A stretch of 63,741 nucleotides of DNA, filler included. It is 9 parts of 9 records of this genome, joined end to end, with 100 filler letters (N's around TTAATTAATTAA, not from the genome) between each part and the next. Parts side by side here need not be neighbours in the genome. Positions count along the whole stretch, not along the records: positions 52,900 to 58,246 come from SRR31147125_49216; 8 more parts are not named here. One strand, written 5' to 3'. The position numbers and the translations under genes were made by a program. Shown piece by piece: positions 5,206 through 62,126 of this stretch. The notes beneath the pieces were generated by a model. That model searched no databases. It was not told the origin of the DNA and saw only the letters and a program-made list of their open reading frames with translations. Numbering within the stretch: the stretch's first letter is position 1; the number at the start of each line of letters is the position of its first letter.

Positions 5206-5305
5206 NNNNNNNNNNNNNNNNNNNNNNNNNNNNNNNNNNNNNNNNNNNNTTAATTAATTAANNNNNNNNNNNNNNNNNNNNNNNNNNNNNNNNNNNNNNN
5301 NNNNN
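5206..5305. other. Artificial contig spacer
   Basis: N-run / TTAATTAATTAA / N-run, 100 nt, stops in all frames. Confidence 0.97.
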
Positions 5306-14609: not shown

Positions 14610-14709
14610 NNNNNNNNNNNNNNNNNNNNNNNNNNNNNNNNNNNNNNNNNNNNTTAATTAATTAANNNNNNNNNNNNNNNNNNNNNNNNNNNNNNNNNNN
14701 NNNNNNNNN
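14610..14709. other. Artificial contig spacer
   Basis: Same 100-nt linker. Confidence 0.97.
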
Positions 14710-21647: not shown

Positions 21648-21747
21648 NNNNNNNNNNNNNNNNNNNNNNNNNNNNNNNNNNNNNNNNNNNNTTAATTAAT
21701 TAANNNNNNNNNNNNNNNNNNNNNNNNNNNNNNNNNNNNNNNNNNNN
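21648..21747. other. Artificial contig spacer
   Basis: Same 100-nt linker. Confidence 0.97.
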
Positions 21748-28316: not shown

Positions 28317-28416
28317 NNNNNNNNNNNNNNNNNNNNNNNNNNNNNNNNNNNNNNNNNNNNTTAATTAATTAANNNNNNNNNNNNNNNNNNNNNNNNNNNN
28401 NNNNNNNNNNNNNNNN
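28317..28416. other. Artificial contig spacer
   Basis: Same 100-nt linker. Confidence 0.97.
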
Positions 28417-39120: not shown

Positions 39121-39220
39121 NNNNNNNNNNNNNNNNNNNNNNNNNNNNNNNNNNNNNNNNNNNNTTAATTAATTAANNNNNNNNNNNNNNNNNNNNNNNN
39201 NNNNNNNNNNNNNNNNNNNN
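39121..39220. other. Artificial contig spacer
   Basis: Same 100-nt linker. Confidence 0.97.
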
Positions 39221-45342: not shown

Positions 45343-45442
45343 NNNNNNNNNNNNNNNNNNNNNNNNNNNNNNNNNNNNNNNNNNNNTTAATTAATTAANN
45401 NNNNNNNNNNNNNNNNNNNNNNNNNNNNNNNNNNNNNNNNNN
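45343..45442. other. Artificial contig spacer
   Basis: Same 100-nt linker. Confidence 0.97.
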
Positions 45443-52799: not shown

Positions 52800-52899
52800 N
52801 NNNNNNNNNNNNNNNNNNNNNNNNNNNNNNNNNNNNNNNNNNNTTAATTAATTAANNNNNNNNNNNNNNNNNNNNNNNNNNNNNNNNNNNNNNNNNNNN
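52800..52899. other. Artificial contig spacer
   Basis: Same 100-nt linker. Confidence 0.97.
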
Positions 52900-54443
52900 G
52901 GAAGTATAAAATCGACCTCAGATTACGGTCTGGTGGCGGACGTGTTCGGCGTATTGCTTATACGGACAAATATGCCAGTGAGAAGCTTCTCCGCAATATT
53001 ATGGAGCTAGATGCTTGCAAACTTGCTGGAGAGCATCCTGACAGGGATTTGACTGCTTGGTTGGAACGGCAAGACCTCGCACTCAAGGAGTATCTTGCAA
53101 AGAAAGGGGTGATACCTGAATCAATTGTTAATAGATCAAAGACTTTGAAACAACATTTAGAGGACTTTATTCTACACAAAAATAACAAATCAATCAGAGG
53201 TGGGATTGGTGCGAAACAGGTGGGGTTGCTAAATAACCGAATAGGCAAAATGGTCAAGGAGTGCAAGTTCAGAAGTGTTGAGGAGATAACACACTCTGCT
53301 GTTGATACTTGGATTGCTAATAAATATGAGAGTAAAGCATTGTCAGCAAAATCATGCAATGATTACTTGCAATCACTCAAACAATTCTGTAAATGGCTTG
53401 ATGTTAACAACATCATTGCGGACAATCCAATAGCTAGACTTACCCCTATCCCTCTTAACTCTGAGAACACCTCACCGAGGCGAGCACTATCTGAAGTAGA
53501 GCTTACCAAGCTTCTAGCAACCGTCAGAGGAGCAAGCGATACAGTTCAAGGACTGAATGGAGAAGAAAGGTATTTAGTATATCAGTTAATCTTACAAACA
53601 GGGCTGAGACACAACGAAGTAAGGACGCTGCTGCACGACGACTTTGATTTTGAGAATAGCACAGTTACTGTTCGTGATGTAAATGCTAAGAATTCTAAGA
53701 CGGACACTTTACCATATATGGAAGAACTTAGTGTCGAGCTTCAGGAGTACTTTGCAAGCAATTCAATAGAAGGTAAAGAACGAGCGTTTAAGAAGATGGG
53801 AACAAAAGGCTTCAAGATGGTCAAGGCTGACCTTCTCAAAGTCGGTATACCATATGAGACAGATGAAGGAAAGGCAGATTTTCATGCTTTGCGTCATACT
53901 TTCTGTACTATGCTTGCCCGTAATGGTGTGCTACCGCAGGTTACTCAGAGGCTTATGAGGCATAGTGACATAAATTTGACCATGAAGAGCTATACACATC
54001 TTCATGTAGATGATAAGAGAGCAGCGATTGGTGAACTCCCAGTATTACGGAAGACACCTAATAACAGGTGCGAGAGTATAAAAGATAAAATAGAGGGGGC
54101 TGAGCCTGACTCAGCCTCTGACAAATCTATAATGTGCCCAAAAAGTGCCCAAATCGTGCCCAGAACGCCGGACAGCTTAAATATTAATATGGACGCTGAT
54201 GGACAGATTGCAATAAAGAGCAGAAACACTCAGAGCACTACTTTTAGGGCATCAAACGACAAAAACACTGCCAAAGACAGTGTTTTTGAAGGCGAAAATG
54301 AGTTTGCAAATTGTGATACAAATTGGTGGAGGCGGCGGGAATCGAACAGTATTTTAATCTTTTACTCAGCAGTACATTGCAAAAGCATCCACGACAAATC
54401 CACCCCCATAAATACCCCCAATACTATTGTATATAATTACTAA
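52900..54443 (+). CDS. Tyrosine recombinase/integrase; 5'-truncated, reading frame continues across the att site
   Basis: TGLRHNE (R), NAKNSK (K), FHALRHT (HxxR), MRHSD (H), KSYTH (Y); the frame is open from 52902 (KYKIDLRLR...AYTDK). Confidence 0.92.
54134..54162 (+). repeat. Three direct GTGCCCA repeats with 11-bp period, candidate integrase arm-type sites
   Basis: GTGCCCA at 54134, 54145 and 54156, about 160 bp from the att core. Confidence 0.65.
54324..54347 (-). mobile_element. att site: duplicated 3' end of tmRNA (ssrA) or a tRNA-Ala-like gene
   Basis: Minus strand GTTCGATTCCCGCCGCCTCCACCA = T-loop, T-stem and acceptor strand with U70 and ACCA; no 5' T-stem partner, so it is a fragment. 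Confidence 0.85.
54402..54420 (+). repeat. Two ACCCCCA direct repeats, candidate arm sites of a second element
   Basis: ACCCCCA-taaat-ACCCCCA, about 55 bp from the att core on the side opposite the integrase. Confidence 0.5.
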
Positions 54444-54647
54444 TTTCGGTTTACGTTCAATTTATAAAGAAATATTTTATTATTTCTTATTCCTGCTAAT
54501 GATCTTACACCATAACAGAACACACCATTTTTCAGGTTCTGTAATTACACATATTATTTTACAGACTCCCGGAATCTGCGAAAGCCCCTTCTCATCAGTC
54601 TGAAATTCGCTCATATACTGCCCATTCACCATTTTAAAATATAATGT

Positions 54648-55715
54648 TTATCCTGTCACAACCCACTGCATATACTTTTGCTTTAAATCAAAACAATTCT
54701 TTGATGACAAACCTTTTTTACAATATTCTGTAACTCTAGTTTCTCTACCAGATTTTTTAGATGTTTTATATGCTTTAAACTCAAACAATTTACCCGGCAA
54801 AACATGCTCTTCAAATCTAAATTCATTCTTCTCATTAACTCCAATATAATTTCCATTTGAATCAGATGTCCAATATCCTGAATAACTCAATCTCTCAAGA
54901 GCACGACGCATTTCAACAGCTGATTGATATCTCTTTGCTGGCTCAACATTAATTGCTTTATTAATTACACTTTTTAAATTACGCGGAACAAAAAACTGAT
55001 AATCCTTTGAGCGAATAATATTACCATCCTTTACAAGCTGATAGTATTTATCTTCTCCTTGATTATTAAACTTATCCTGAATAGACCCTATTCCATTTAC
55101 TAAACGAAAAGCAGTCAACCCAACCTGATAAATGTCTGTCTGAACATTAATTTGCTCAGAAGTAAGTATTTCTGGAGCTATATGAAGTTTATATGCGCTC
55201 CTAGGCTTCACCGATTCTCCAAATGGTGAGTGACAGGTAATTCCATAATCAGTTAAAATACCTTGTTTATCATCACCAACCAATATATTTTTAGGTTTTA
55301 TATCGCTATGATATAAATTTAATTCATGCAAATATTCTAAGCCTCGTAAAATATCTGATAATATACGAAGCACATCAGGAATAACGATAAAGTTTCTAGA
55401 ATTTACAAATGAAAGAATTGATCCATTAGGATGATAGTCCATTGCGATAATAACTAAACTTTTTCCTTCATGTGGGATTACATCTGCATAATGCATTTTA
55501 ACAAGATTTGCATGGTTTAAATGATTCCCAATTTGAGCTTCTTTAAGACGTTCACTTATAGCGACATTTTGCCCTAGAATTTTCACTGCAATATCTCTAT
55601 TAATAGTCTGGTCATGAGCAAGCCATACATCACCAAAACCGCCACTACCAATAGGTTTTATTAATTGATATTTATAAATATTTTGTTCAGGAACCACAGA
55701 TGGTTTATGAGACAT
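54648..55715 (-). CDS. Hanks-type Ser/Thr protein kinase (soluble, non-RD)
   Basis: IGSGGFGDV, IAVK, KEA, YHSDIKPKN, TDYG, IAPE, DIYQVG; probable start MSHKP at 55715 with GGAGG RBS (track start 55736). Confidence 0.92.
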   Translation of the reverse strand: MSHKPSVVPEQNIYKYQLIKPIGSGGFGDVWLAHDQTINRDIAVKILGQNVAISERLKEAQIGNHLNHANLVKMHYADVIPHEGKSLVIIAMDYHPNGSILSFVNSRNFIVIPDVLRILSDILRGLEYLHELNLYHSDIKPKNILVGDDKQGILTDYGITCHSPFGESVKPRSAYKLHIAPEILTSEQINVQTDIYQVGLTAFRLVNGIGSIQDKFNNQGEDKYYQLVKDGNIIRSKDYQFFVPRNLKSVINKAINVEPAKRYQSAVEMRRALERLSYSGYWTSDSNGNYIGVNEKNEFRFEEHVLPGKLFEFKAYKTSKKSGRETRVTEYCKKGLSSKNCFDLKQKYMQWVVTG

Positions 55716-55717
55716 AC

Positions 55718-56182
55718 TCAACTCCTCCAACGCCATGCAGCAGCAAGCGCATCAGCCATTGAATTATCCCAATATTTTCCTGAGCGTCCAATATTTGATT
55801 CGACAAAATCTTTTATTTTTGATGAACTCATACCTTTTTCAATACTAGTATACAAAAATGCCCTTACTTGCTTTCCATTTTGCCTTGCAAGCAACATTAC
55901 AACTCCATCCATATTTGTTGAATAGCGAGTAGCTTTTTTCTCTGTACCATATTGATTCATCTTAATCGCAACTTTTTCTATATCAGGATAAACCCTAAAA
56001 ATTCTCTCAAACTCTGAATACAACCACTCAAGCTTTAATGCTATATCATCATCACCATATTCAGCAGGAAACACTAATTTATTTTCAGATTCAGCGTTAA
56101 CAAAGCCTACTTCATCACCATTCAACTCTATAACAGCATACCTCACGCATTTTGATGAGGTGCGAATTCCCAATATTTGCAT
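55718..56182 (-). CDS. RuvC-like RNase H-fold protein, predicted catalytically altered
   Basis: By-eye end-to-end alignment to RuvC: ILGIR (ILGID), LKLEWLY (SRLKLIY), VAIK (FAIE), DGVVML (RGVAIV), ADALAAA (ADALAIA). Confidence 0.7.
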   Translation of the reverse strand: MQILGIRTSSKCVRYAVIELNGDEVGFVNAESENKLVFPAEYGDDDIALKLEWLYSEFERIFRVYPDIEKVAIKMNQYGTEKKATRYSTNMDGVVMLLARQNGKQVRAFLYTSIEKGMSSSKIKDFVESNIGRSGKYWDNSMADALAAAWRWRS

Positions 56183-56193
56183 TATTTTCTCCC

Positions 56194-56427
56194 TTACTTA
56201 TTATCTCTTGGAGGACATGAGTCATTACCAAAGCTATTACCGCCTCTAATTTTACCATCAACTCCATGTATTTTAGTATCTGAGTGCTGATTTCTGGCTA
56301 TATCCTGTGCAATTTCGATTGCTTCCTTCTGAGTCGGTGTAACCTTTGTAGCTTTGCTATTACCCTCACCTTTAACAGTCCAGCCATCAGGATGCTTAAC
56401 AACATGCTGGTTCTTACCTTTTTCGAT
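56194..56427 (-). CDS. DUF2188-family small protein with ATC at the expected start; absent from the ORF track
   Basis: Manual translation (I/M)EKGKNQHVVKHPDGWTVKGEGNSKATKVTPTQKEAIEIA...IHGVDGKIR...SFGNDSCPPRDNK*; AAGGAG 7 nt upstream. Confidence 0.8.
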   Translation of the reverse strand: MEKGKNQHVVKHPDGWTVKGEGNSKATKVTPTQKEAIEIAQDIARNQHSDTKIHGVDGKIRGGNSFGNDSCPPRDNK

Positions 56428-56552
56428 TTTCTTTCTCCTTGATTTAACTAATCATAATAGTCTTACGTTGATATTTTTAAAACAAAATACTTCAGCTAAT
56501 CAAAATCTTATCAATATACAAAGAACATTTGTTCCAGTACAATCATATATTA

Positions 56553-58007
56553 TCAAAATGGTTTCTTGGCTTTTACAACCTCTTTAGCAGTAGATTCGAT
56601 AATTTCATGTAATGGCATTTTTTCGCCGTGCTTTCCATTTAGTGTTTCTGAAGCATTAAACGAAACAGACTCTACGGCCTTTGAAAGTAATTCCTTTAGT
56701 AACTCATTGCTTTCTTCTCCAAGTTTTTCAATTTGATCTTTATAGCTATTTATTGAGCTTGCAAGAGACTCTTTATGCGCATACTCCTGCTGTAATCGCT
56801 GTGCTTCACTTCTTCGCTTTGTCGCATAATATGTAAACCATAAAGCTGGTACATAAAATGGGATTTTTAATCCTAAACTTTTTAATAAGTCCTCCCACCC
56901 ACCAATACTTTTGAATGATAGACTAAAAGGGCTAAAAGTTATTGAATCTACTGTAAATACAAATGAAATTACAAGTAGTATCCCAATAGCCACATAAAAC
57001 TGTTTGCTTGATTTTTCGATTTGATCATCAAATGATTCTTTCATTTCTTTATATGCGCTAGAAAGCCCTGCACTTGTCGCCCCAGGTAAAAGAGTTTCAA
57101 TTTGGTCATTCAAGGCTTCATACCGATCGTGCTGTATTTTTTGAAAATTCTCAAGGTCTTCTTTTAGTTTTAACAACTTCTCTTCTAAACCACCTGAAAG
57201 TTTCCCATCTTCATCCTCCTCACCAAAACTTTTTGTATAAAACTTTAACAGATCATCAACCATATACCTTGTATCTTCCAACAACTTCTCAGACTGTTTT
57301 TTATTATTATTTATATTATTAAGCGATTCATATACTTCATCCTTTACAGATACATTACGCTGATCACCAACTAATAATTCACTATGTAATTTCTTTATTT
57401 CAGTACATTTGCTATTAATCTCATTCACATACGTATCTATTTGATGCTTTGTTCCACTATTAATAGTAAACGTATTATTATATAGCTCATTAATCGCATC
57501 ACCTTGCTGTTTAATACCATTATATGTCTCTGTAATTTCTTTCTGTTGTGATTCAAAATCCTTTTTCACAACTCTGACATTCTCCTGAAACACTTCCATA
57601 AACTTATTTGCTGCTTTTTCATATGCGGTGCCAGCTCTTTTTGCAGCAGTCAGTGCCTGTTTAGGCTGAACATAATATGGTTTAACTGTAGATAATAAAT
57701 TATCAGCTTCTTTGTTAGCTTGATTAATATACCCAACATTTTTGCTTGTTTGGTATTGATCCAGTTGCCCCAAACAATTCTGTGAATAAGACTGAACACC
57801 CGACCATAAGCTTAACGGCACTAACTCAGGATCAGAATTCTTGATAAATTCATCAACATAAATGATTACTTTTTTAAGTCTTGCTAATTCATCAATAGAA
57901 TCTACTTGAGTAACATCATCAATTGACAATTCCTCAACTCTTTTATAGAGCCTACCCCATGCACTATGAAACGGATGTTTATCAAACTCTTTAGTGTATC
58001 TAGACAT
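56553..58007 (-). CDS. Hypothetical long coiled-coil protein with two C-terminal TM helices
   Basis: Heptad-rich middle, LLPGATSAGLSSAY, two hydrophobic segments, QQEYAHKE. Confidence 0.75.
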   Translation of the reverse strand: MSRYTKEFDKHPFHSAWGRLYKRVEELSIDDVTQVDSIDELARLKKVIIYVDEFIKNSDPELVPLSLWSGVQSYSQNCLGQLDQYQTSKNVGYINQANKEADNLLSTVKPYYVQPKQALTAAKRAGTAYEKAANKFMEVFQENVRVVKKDFESQQKEITETYNGIKQQGDAINELYNNTFTINSGTKHQIDTYVNEINSKCTEIKKLHSELLVGDQRNVSVKDEVYESLNNINNNKKQSEKLLEDTRYMVDDLLKFYTKSFGEEDEDGKLSGGLEEKLLKLKEDLENFQKIQHDRYEALNDQIETLLPGATSAGLSSAYKEMKESFDDQIEKSSKQFYVAIGILLVISFVFTVDSITFSPFSLSFKSIGGWEDLLKSLGLKIPFYVPALWFTYYATKRRSEAQRLQQEYAHKESLASSINSYKDQIEKLGEESNELLKELLSKAVESVSFNASETLNGKHGEKMPLHEIIESTAKEVVKAKKPF

Positions 58008-58047
58008 TTTATTACCTGCTATTTCATATCTTTTAAACCATAACTCT

Positions 58048-58137
58048 CTATTGCTCGAAATCTACTTCTAATGCATCTGAGATATCAAGGCGTTCCGCAA
58101 TTTTATCCAAATAACGTGAAAATAATGTATTACTCAT
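58048..58137 (-). pseudogene. 29-codon ORF with strong RBS, possible N-terminal stub of a CD-NTase/SMODS nucleotidyltransferase
   Basis: MSNTLFSRYLDKIAERLDISDA... resembles the L..IAE.LDI N-terminal helix recalled for such enzymes; AAGGAG upstream. Confidence 0.3.
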
Positions 58138-58246
58138 ATATATTTCTCCTTTTCCTTAATATTTTTAATATATCATGCAAATTTCATTCCATAACTAACA
58201 GATTTAAAAATATCCACTTAAACATCTTTTTGTCTTGATACCTACA

Positions 58247-58346
58247 NNNNNNNNNNNNNNNNNNNNNNNNNNNNNNNNNNNNNNNNNNNNTTAATTAATT
58301 AANNNNNNNNNNNNNNNNNNNNNNNNNNNNNNNNNNNNNNNNNNNN
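58247..58346. other. Artificial contig spacer
   Basis: Same 100-nt linker. Confidence 0.97.
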
Positions 58347-60467: not shown

Positions 60468-62126
60468 ATGTTCGTATTCCGAGCCAGTAAAAGGATTATT
60501 GAGTTTATAAAAATTTACGGTTTTTTACAAACCGCAGTACTAATAAATATATTGGGAATTTGGCCTCTTCGAATGAGGTTTATGCCGATTTATTTGAAGA
60601 TTCACCTTAAATTGAGGCGTATTCGAGAAACTCTTTTTGCCGATAAAGATATTCAGAAATGGCAAAAAAGAAAAAACGAAATTCTTTCAAAGAATAAGAG
60701 CGATTACAAAAGCAGTATTTATGAGTTAGGATTAGATCGAAACAATCTATCACTTCTTCAAAAGAATTTGGTCAAAGACAATGAAGTCATTATAGCCAAA
60801 ATTGATCAAGACGGTTTTTTTCTTTCAAATTTCGGAAAAATAAAAGGACTTCCACAAGTAACAAAAGACCAGTTCGTACAACGGAACAGGTCAGAAATTA
60901 CCTTGGTGGCCATCAAGGAATATCTTGGGGTAAAAAAAGATTATAAATCTAATAAGCAAGGCTTCTTAAATGAAATAACGGCCTTAGATAGGCTCAGAAA
61001 TACCGGATGTAATATCCCATCTATCTTGGACATTGATTTTGAGAATATGACGATAACGATTTCATTCATTACAGGGACAATTCTCCGTGAAGAACTTGCA
61101 AAGAATGGGGCATTACTGAGAGATCGTGATGTAAAAAATGCTCCCTCCTTTAAAAAATTGAAACATAATGAGATCTGGTTAAAATGTTTCCAAGAGGGCA
61201 CCTCTGTTTTATTGGATGTTATTGATAAAAAATTCATCGACACCCTCTTCTCACAATTACAAAGGGCTCACCGTGCTGGTATTATTTTAAATGATATCAA
61301 ATATGGAAATATTGTAATAGAGAAAACGTCTGGGGAGCCCTATTGGATTGATTTTGATCATGCCCAATTCTTTCCGAGTTTGGGAAAGGAGGCATTTAGT
61401 TTATTGCGGGATAAAAATATTGAATTGTTTAATCTATGCTTTGATACTCACAAACTTACATGGAAGAGAATAGAGGACAAAATCAAAAAAATACCCTATC
61501 CCCAAATATATGCACCTGTATATATCTTCCCTGGCCTGACCTTAGGCCCCATTGGCTGTGAAACGGTAGGGTATGGCCGTTGGACCTATATTCTTAGAAA
61601 AAACATACCCAAAGTAGCAGGAAAACGTATTTTGGATATCGGGGCGAATAACGCTCAAAACTCAATGCAACTGATGAGAAAGGGAGCCAAAGAAATAATC
61701 GGCATTGAAATAAATCCTGACAATATCAAACAGGGTGAATTTATTCGGGCTGCTTATGAATGGGCTGACAGCAAGACATATAATTTCAAATATATTGAGT
61801 CGAACATGAATAAGATACCAGATTTGGAATTGGGCAAGTTTGATCTTGTTATGGCGCTATGCTCCCTTTATTATTTGAGTGAAAATGATATGGCCACATT
61901 GGTACAATATGTAAGCACGATCACTGATACTTTCATACTTCAAGCCAATACAAGCCTAAATATTTCACGCCAAAATCCTGAAACCTATAAAAAAGCAAGT
62001 CTATCATTTACACAAAATATTTTAAAATTGAATGGGTTTCCAAAAACCCGGGTAATCTCACCTCATAAATACAGCCGCCCCCTTGTTATCGGGGAAAAGA
62101 ATAAAGTTTCTCACCGGAGCACCTAA
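60468..62126 (+). CDS. Kinase-like (Kdo/RIO-type) domain fused to a C-terminal class I methyltransferase
   Basis: Kinase: LGVKK, FLNE, HRAGIILNDIKYGN, WIDFD. MTase: ILDIGANNA, IIGIE, FDLVMALCSLYYL. Confidence 0.8.
   Translation: MFVFRASKRIIEFIKIYGFLQTAVLINILGIWPLRMRFMPIYLKIHLKLRRIRETLFADKDIQKWQKRKNEILSKNKSDYKSSIYELGLDRNNLSLLQKNLVKDNEVIIAKIDQDGFFLSNFGKIKGLPQVTKDQFVQRNRSEITLVAIKEYLGVKKDYKSNKQGFLNEITALDRLRNTGCNIPSILDIDFENMTITISFITGTILREELAKNGALLRDRDVKNAPSFKKLKHNEIWLKCFQEGTSVLLDVIDKKFIDTLFSQLQRAHRAGIILNDIKYGNIVIEKTSGEPYWIDFDHAQFFPSLGKEAFSLLRDKNIELFNLCFDTHKLTWKRIEDKIKKIPYPQIYAPVYIFPGLTLGPIGCETVGYGRWTYILRKNIPKVAGKRILDIGANNAQNSMQLMRKGAKEIIGIEINPDNIKQGEFIRAAYEWADSKTYNFKYIESNMNKIPDLELGKFDLVMALCSLYYLSENDMATLVQYVSTITDTFILQANTSLNISRQNPETYKKASLSFTQNILKLNGFPKTRVISPHKYSRPLVIGEKNKVSHRST

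Follow-up and report, generated by a model that had tools for sequence, protein, structure and literature searches.

A charge-reversed RuvC-like protein and a Hanks-type kinase encoded by a conserved gene pair: a candidate two-gene anti-phage module that recurs in restriction-modification and DISARM operons

We analysed a 63,741-nucleotide stretch of DNA, filler letters included (the window), in which one of the chained contigs carries three consecutive genes on the minus strand, for a small DUF2188 protein, a RuvC-like protein and a Hanks-type Ser/Thr kinase. The three are called the cassette here, and the last two the pair. Counted along the window, they lie as follows (aa, amino acids).

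56194..56427, minus strand: DUF2188 small protein, 77 aa (Pfam DUF2188, PF09954, E 8.2e-23)
55718..56182, minus strand: RuvC-like protein, 154 aa, first gene of the pair (identified with AlphaFold2, AF2, and Foldseek)
54648..55715, minus strand: Hanks-type Ser/Thr kinase, second gene of the pair, 355 aa from ATG 55715
54651..54884, minus strand: kinase residues ~285-362, a family-specific C-terminal domain with six strands and a terminal helix (DSSP)

An earlier description made from the letters alone (the sequence-only reading) had seen three tightly spaced minus-strand genes, each with its own ribosome-binding site. The spacing is as described, with 11 nucleotides (nt) between the DUF2188 stop codon (TAA) and the ATG of the RuvC-like gene and 2 nt between the TGA of the latter (55720-55718) and the kinase ATG (55715). 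Purine-rich Shine-Dalgarno-like motifs (AAGGAG, GGGAG and GGAGG) do stand upstream of the three starts. The DUF2188 frame contains no ATG, GTG or TTG start codon. The codon at the DUF2188 start position is ATC (56427-56425), and homologues in two related loci (L005 and L023) have ATG there; the gene therefore either uses a rare start codon or no longer has one. A longer kinase open reading frame (ORF) reaches ATG 55736 and would encode 362 aa. Homologues align from about residue 8-20 of this long ORF, and ATG 55715 is the likely start.

The RuvC-like protein has no Pfam match at E<=0.1, no PADLOC family and no meaningful PHROG family, and the NCBIfam RuvC model matches it at E 0.0034 (17.3 bits against a cut-off of 163). 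Its AF2 model, built with 26 homologues, was obtained with a predicted local distance difference test (pLDDT) score of 94 and a predicted template modelling (pTM) score of 0.90. When this model was compared with the PDB by Foldseek, the top 11 matches were all RuvC (TM 0.73-0.79), the best values being E 1.8e-10 and TM 0.78 for 7xhj and TM 0.76 for 1hjr. The best structural matches are the RuvCs of D. radiodurans, T. thermophilus, P. aeruginosa and E. coli, and phage RuvCs are comparable. Alignment by hhalign with the true RuvCs from three host genomes gave a probability of 87% and E 4e-6 over 139 columns.

The same hhalign comparison pairs ILGIRTSS with ILGVDPGS, which places R7 at the first catalytic Asp, and it places D144 at the last one. 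In a hidden Markov model (HMM) alignment to D. radiodurans RuvC, K74 falls on the catalytic Glu (VAIK against VAIE); hhalign is shifted there by one residue, to the adjacent M75, and neither alignment puts an acid at this position. Three of the four positions of the catalytic tetrad (Asp, Glu, Asp/His, Asp) are thus changed (R7, K74 and S141) and D144 is kept. Across 94 family sequences, position 7 is Arg in 79 and Lys in 10, position 74 is Lys in 90 and Arg in 2, and position 144 is Asp in 78 and Glu in 5. The Asp/His position, S141 in the window protein, is Gln or Lys in the family, and R14, N29 and E57 are close to invariant. Judging from these alignments, the charge reversal is a family-defining trait, in agreement with the sequence-only reading, which had called the protein a charge-reversed RuvC.

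With the RuvC resolvases (PF02075; 1hjr, 4ld0, 7xhj) the protein shares fold, size and the last catalytic Asp, but it differs from them by the basic residues at the Asp and Glu positions, by a score below all RuvC HMM cut-offs and by its pairing with a kinase. Each of five host genomes encodes one true RuvC above the Pfam cut-off, and this is all that PF02075 detects there; since these genomes keep a separate true RuvC, the RuvC-like protein is not the housekeeping resolvase. The ESM atlas returned for it only clusters named "hypothetical" and a weak DUF3010 lead. T8, S9 and S10 were considered as a conserved phospho-acceptor and rejected, because they are variable among family members.

The kinase matches Pfam Pkinase (PF00069) at E 3.5e-35, with 122 bits against a cut-off of 31.7. 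As the sequence-only reading had stated, its catalytic motifs are all retained: K52, E66, H143/D145/K147/N150, D163 (DYG), APE187-189, D201 and R269 are invariant in 17 homologues. The AF2 model (pLDDT 89) shows a PknB-like catalytic domain, and the top Foldseek match is PknB 5u94 (E 8e-18). The C-terminal extension that had also been noticed is real, residues ~285-362 being confidently modelled as a compact beta+alpha domain (block-mean pLDDT 92-98) in which G287, W289, G299, V359, V360 and G362 are invariant in 17 sequences. No look-alike of this domain was found in the ESM atlas. In PADLOC the best match of the kinase is mad6 (E 1.2e-41), and many PD-T4-6 profiles match as well (up to E 9.5e-40). 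Three other Hanks kinases from the same genomes, used as controls, reached E 1e-60 to 1e-106 on the same profiles; the controls score much higher, so the PD-T4-6 and mad6 matches are generic to the kinase fold. The kinase also falls far below the NCBIfam cut-offs for MAD6 (126 bits against 460) and PglW (29 against 990), and no other mad gene was matched by PADLOC among the neighbouring proteins of the contig.

To follow the pair in other genomes, homologues of 55718..56182 were surveyed. The RuvC-like family comprises 188 representatives (50% identity) at E<=1e-3 and 143 at E<=1e-10; no kinase fusion was found among the best 150 of the 188, and lengths range from 41 to 223 aa. In total, 24 genome loci and 56 metagenome loci were screened, and a locus was taken as informative when it held a complete 3' end of the RuvC-like gene and at least 300 nt downstream. 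A kinase gene lies directly downstream in all 24 genome loci, two of which look degraded (L020, cut by a contig end, and L022, frameshifted). It directly follows the RuvC-like gene in 69 of the 70 informative loci, and the pairing is therefore conserved in other genomes. The ten loci left out of the 70 were too short or carried a truncated RuvC-like fragment (L074-L076, L078), and the sole exception, L046, runs on into an aminotransferase gene.

Spacing and divergence of the two genes were also compared. In 52 loci, the kinase alignment begins -12 to +55 nt from the point at which the RuvC-like alignment ends. Duplicates are present among these complete pairs, 44 of the 52 being non-identical, and in these 44 the two proteins diverge together (Mantel r 0.88, reached by 0 of 999 permutations), which shows co-inheritance as a unit and is not evidence of binding. 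The pair is spread over at least nine bacterial phyla, namely Firmicutes, Desulfobacterota, KSB1, Planctomycetota, Chloroflexota, Bacteroidota, Verrucomicrobiota, Proteobacteria and Cyanobacteria, and also occurs in one archaeal metagenome-assembled genome (MAG). A reverse scan of IMG/VR based on the kinase gave one locus (L086), where a RuvC-like gene again lies upstream.

The Paludibacteraceae MAG locus L008 and the Anaerolineaceae MAG locus L010 gave identical tblastn rows and ORF coordinates, which reflects either a recent transfer or a binning error. In L074-L076, the first 100 RuvC-like residues are present with no kinase downstream, and the opposite strand carries a YhcG-like fragment some 550 nt upstream; these are probably decayed copies of the pair.

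The third gene of the cassette behaves differently from the pair. Its product is a clear DUF2188 protein (PF09954, 80.8 bits against a cut-off of 22) and matches the PADLOC candidate PDC-S16 (E 2.3e-33). By HMM search, DUF2188 occurs in 4 of 81 related loci (L005, L017, L023 and L029); at least 300 nt 5' of the RuvC-like match were available in 69 of the first 80 loci. Where found, it is always upstream and on the same strand, the copy in L017 being divergent. DUF2188 is thus a recurrent but facultative companion: its likeness to the known families is that the upstream small gene of the cassette matches both models, and the difference is that it is a facultative neighbour of the pair. We regard it as a sporadic accessory, or as a small defence-island gene that travels along with the pair, and not as a core component. 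In L023 (5022-5918), and in this locus only, the type I operon has a gene for a HAD-type phosphatase that separates DUF2188 from the pair; the phosphatase is a possible antagonist of the kinase.

We then considered the neighbourhood of the pair. In type I restriction-modification (R-M) loci the order is HsdM-(RhuM)-HsdS-pair-HsdR-YgjP, in type III loci Mod-pair-Res and in class 1 DISARM loci DrmD-DrmMI-pair-DrmA-DrmB, with the pair on the same strand in each setting. The usual slot thus lies between the methylase/specificity genes and the restriction/helicase gene. An uncharacterised methylase/specificity cluster, typified by L001, also hosts the pair.

Single-linkage clustering at 90% RuvC-like identity gave 42 clusters, of which 24 have a locus of at least 8 kb (well-flanked clusters). 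The pair lies inside an R-M or DISARM operon in 13 of these 24, including L006 (type III) and L015 and L049 (type I), which were assigned against the automatic labels. In 2 further clusters it adjoins Hhe or a Hachiman-like/PDC-M23B helicase. Among the remaining loci, L068 has a DUF262/GmrSD-like gene upstream of it. As a background, five host genomes hold 19 N6_Mtase matches in 23.3 Mb, a density at which chance proximity would be about 1% by a rough estimate. The pair is strongly associated with defence loci, and what carries weight is that it lies within R-M and DISARM operons, a context out of sight of the sequence-only reading. Even when their RuvC-like proteins are linked at >=90% identity, pairs are found in different R-M types, which indicates that the pair moves on its own, as a unit.

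Several of these loci have particular features. In the DISARM operon of L040 (7514-10094), a type III-A retron (phosphoribosyltransferase and reverse transcriptase) is inserted between the pair and DrmA, and this slot seems to collect defence cargo. The L001-type cluster is conserved around the pair in L001-L004 and L025-L028 (e.g. L001:737-12451), in an order that starts with two type-I-like specificity genes and continues with genes for a 665-aa methylase and a 154-aa protein, the pair and three large proteins. These three (421, 388 and >835 aa) had no Pfam or PADLOC match, and the cluster may be an undescribed methylation-based system. About 12 kb downstream of it, two genomes encode a second kinase of 532 aa (G001:C5:117388 and G003:C2:1501486). 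In L024 (4313-5532), another of the remaining loci, an IrrE/CapP-like M78 peptidase gene (292 aa) lies directly upstream of the pair and a 113-aa ORF precedes it, an arrangement that resembles the CapH/CapP regulator pairs reported beside defence operons.

Taken as a whole, the evidence leads us to read the pair as an autonomous, horizontally mobile two-gene anti-phage module of the abortive-infection type, and we give this reading a probability of roughly 0.6. Its first gene encodes a nuclease-dead RuvC (dead RuvC), with near-invariant Arg/Lys in place of the metal-binding Asp and Glu, and its second, tightly or translationally coupled to the first, an active soluble Hanks-type kinase. We infer that the dead RuvC is the sensor or regulator and the kinase the effector. 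Where it rides within R-M or DISARM operons, as it often does, the pair would add a further layer. The dead RuvC may bind branched or foreign DNA, or another phosphate-bearing ligand, through its basic pocket and without cutting, and in this way it would control the kinase, perhaps through the C-terminal domain of the latter. Once released, the kinase would phosphorylate host or phage proteins and phage growth would stop. By analogy with PrrC in the EcoprrI locus, the embedded position could reflect a back-up role when restriction fails.

A narrower version, which we hold as doubtful, is that the pair is a portable guard for restriction systems, in which a RuvC active site converted from a metal-dependent nuclease into a basic phosphate clamp would sense DNA structures that arise once a phage evades or inhibits type I, type III or DISARM restriction, and the kinase would then abort the infection. 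If true, this would make the pair a kinase-based counterpart of PrrC across several restriction classes.

Several points weigh against a defence module of this kind. The putative defence function is deduced from genomic association, and many candidates proposed through guilt by association fail in assays. In nine of the 24 well-flanked clusters the seed set used recognised no defence neighbour, and none of the nine has an R-M gene within ~6 kb; among ten selected neighbours from non-R-M loci, six had no PADLOC match. The contig of the cassette itself, 5.3 kb long, holds no R-M gene. A pattern scan of IMG/VR for the RuvC-like protein found 0 relatives, although its reach was limited and it missed at least L086. 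The proposed binding of DNA by the dead RuvC is wholly conjectural. Finally, position 77, Gln in the window protein, is Glu in 87 of 94 family members, so that some acidic chemistry at the site is possible for most of them.

The best of the other explanations is that the pair is a regulatory accessory of methylation-based restriction, in which the dead RuvC would report the state of the DNA and the kinase would phosphorylate R, M or helicase subunits, for restriction alleviation or licensing. The slot shared by type I, type III and DISARM operons speaks for this, and kinases are built into other methylation-based systems, namely MADS (PMC13662399) and Pgl (a reference cited in PMC12707154). 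However, the nine clusters and the window contig described above are free of R-M genes, and the non-R-M loci have no neighbour in common, the pair being the only unit they share. These stand-alone loci argue against regulation of restriction enzymes as the only role. Moreover, closely similar pairs occur in different R-M types and no specific partner subunit co-varies with them. We therefore consider this explanation unlikely as it stands.

Alternatively, the pair could be a toxin-antitoxin or addiction module, with the kinase as toxin and the RuvC-like protein as antitoxin, that stabilises mobile elements and R-M operons and has no direct anti-phage role. A small upstream gene tightly coupled to the gene of a larger enzyme is what one would expect of such a module, and the pair is mobile and patchily distributed, with an integrase adjoining it in the window. 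However, the conserved RuvC fold and its basic pocket suggest ligand binding and not simple neutralisation, and the enrichment is specifically in defence operons. This makes an addiction role less probable still. Many toxin-antitoxin modules are themselves defence systems, so the explanation overlaps with that of an anti-phage module.

A further possibility, that nothing more is involved than the known PD-T4-6 system of a single gene, or a MADS kinase, among unrelated neighbours, is highly improbable, because the PADLOC matches that suggest it are exceeded by ordinary control kinases, the MAD6 score is far below its cut-off with no other mad gene on the contig, and both the RuvC-like partner (69/70 loci) and the special C-terminal domain lie outside the definitions of PD-T4-6 and MADS.

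An obligate three-gene system of DUF2188, RuvC-like protein and kinase, carried as cargo of an island at a transfer-messenger RNA (tmRNA) gene, was the proposal of the sequence-only reading, and it is likewise highly improbable. DUF2188 does precede the pair in the same orientation, both in the window and in the four loci named above, it matches PDC-S16, and a passage of the preprint 10.1101/2022.04.27.489752 credits Burroughs & Aravind 2020 with an earlier link of DUF2188 to defence. However, DUF2188 is absent from 77 of 81 loci and lacks a canonical start in the window; the conserved unit has two genes, and the counts already largely refute the proposal. The island half of it fares no better, since there is no tmRNA gene and a single att-like copy lies on a 5.3-kb contig, as detailed below.

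The same reading had recognised no named system in the three genes. This stands for the pair, whose RuvC-like partner belongs to no PADLOC, Pfam or PHROG family. We found no published description of a dead-RuvC/kinase pair in a search that had supplementary files outside its scope; Burroughs & Aravind 2020 may mention it.

Several known systems resemble the pair in part. PD-T4-6 and Stk2 are single-gene Ser/Thr-kinase anti-phage systems, and Stk2 was reportedly described by Depardieu in 2016 as an abortive-infection kinase. Like them, the kinase of the pair is a soluble Hanks-type kinase in a defence context, and PD-T4-6 profiles match its kinase domain, though more weakly than they match ordinary kinases. 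It differs from both by its obligate dead-RuvC partner and its own C-terminal domain. The likeness to MAD6 of MADS and PglW of Pgl/BREX type 2 is that of a Ser/Thr kinase within a methylation-dependent defence operon; a passage of PMC13662399 includes kinases among the components of MADS. The kinase of the pair is much shorter than MAD6 and PglW and far below both cut-offs, and its contig in the window carries no further MADS or Pgl genes. PrrC is described in a passage of PMC12707154 as an extra effector in the EcoprrI type IC R-M locus that is thought to be active when restriction is blocked. In many loci the pair is embedded in a similar way, but it differs in that it encodes a kinase and not a tRNA nuclease, consists of two genes and also occurs in type III and DISARM operons and alone.

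Few systems of kinase-based phage defence are known, and how their kinases sense infection is mostly unclear. The pair would add a compact, two-protein and phylogenetically broad case in which the likely sensor is a DNA-junction-binding fold with a re-engineered active site. Because this fold is recognisable and its active site altered, the sensing step is directly testable at R7 and K74. The place that the pair takes up again and again in type I, type III and DISARM operons bears on how restriction is combined in layers with back-up abortive-infection modules. With current tools the kinase would probably be labelled "PD-T4-6" and its partner overlooked, and since control kinases outscore it on the same profiles, this label carries little information.

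The sequence around the cassette was analysed as well. Eight 100-nt linkers of the form N44-TTAATTAATTAA-N44 split the window into at least nine contigs, so that it is a chained pseudo-molecule. The remaining features of the cassette contig, and the linkers, are as follows.

53001..54443, plus strand: tyrosine recombinase/integrase (Pfam Phage_integrase E 2.6e-19; PHROG 1 integrase E 1.5e-39)
54324..54347, minus strand: 24-nt tRNA/tmRNA-like 3' end (T-loop, T-stem 3' strand, acceptor 3' strand, A, CCA)
56553..58007, minus strand: 484-aa protein with no assigned family, encoded on the cassette contig upstream of the three genes
52800..52899: linker, left boundary of the cassette contig
58247..58346: linker, right boundary of the cassette contig
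5206-5305, 14610-14709, 21648-21747, 28317-28416, 39121-39220, 45343-45442, 52800-52899 and 58247-58346: the eight linkers

The cassette contig is 5,347 bp long (52900..58246) and contains the integrase gene, the 24-nt tRNA/tmRNA-like 3' end, the three cassette genes and the gene for the 484-aa protein, and nothing else. Because linkers bound it on both sides, genes beyond 52900..58246 are not real neighbours of the cassette. The Pfam matches of the 484-aa protein are all sub-threshold and PADLOC gave none; it was considered as a component of the system and rejected, as tblastn finds no homologue of it in any related locus. A cluster look-up of the window proteins returned no names.

The sequence-only reading had placed the cassette near a tmRNA attachment (att) site. 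ARAGORN found 0 tRNA or tmRNA genes in the whole window, and Rfam at the gathering threshold found 0 matches in 40000-63741. The region of 54324..54347 scores 11.2 bits against the tmRNA model (E-value mode), with a gathering score of 47, so that the framing as a tmRNA island is reduced to a 24-nt fragment. The exact 24-mer has one copy in the window, and one match was reached in 0 of 100 shuffles. The integrase ORF reads through this att-like stretch, which is a plausible att remnant given the adjoining integrase. As for an island, the integrase is present and the att-like 24-mer is in single copy on a contig that ends at 52900 and 58246; no intact tmRNA gene stands at an island end on the contig, although with so short a contig one may still lie close by in the genome.

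In an 87-nt stretch on the minus strand (54324-54410), a 5' GGGGGUG can pair with the acceptor strand of the tRNA-like 3' end, with a G-U at the third pair. The stretch may be what is left of a tmRNA after an internal deletion; it folds with a terminal stem, but not significantly better than shuffled sequences (z = -1.26). In the window, the cassette is flanked by glycosyltransferase, methyltransferase and MORN/SiaC genes, but these are on other contigs and are artificial neighbours. On a different contig, too, is a 552-aa ORF (60468-62126, plus strand), which lies among glycosyltransferase and methyltransferase-like genes.

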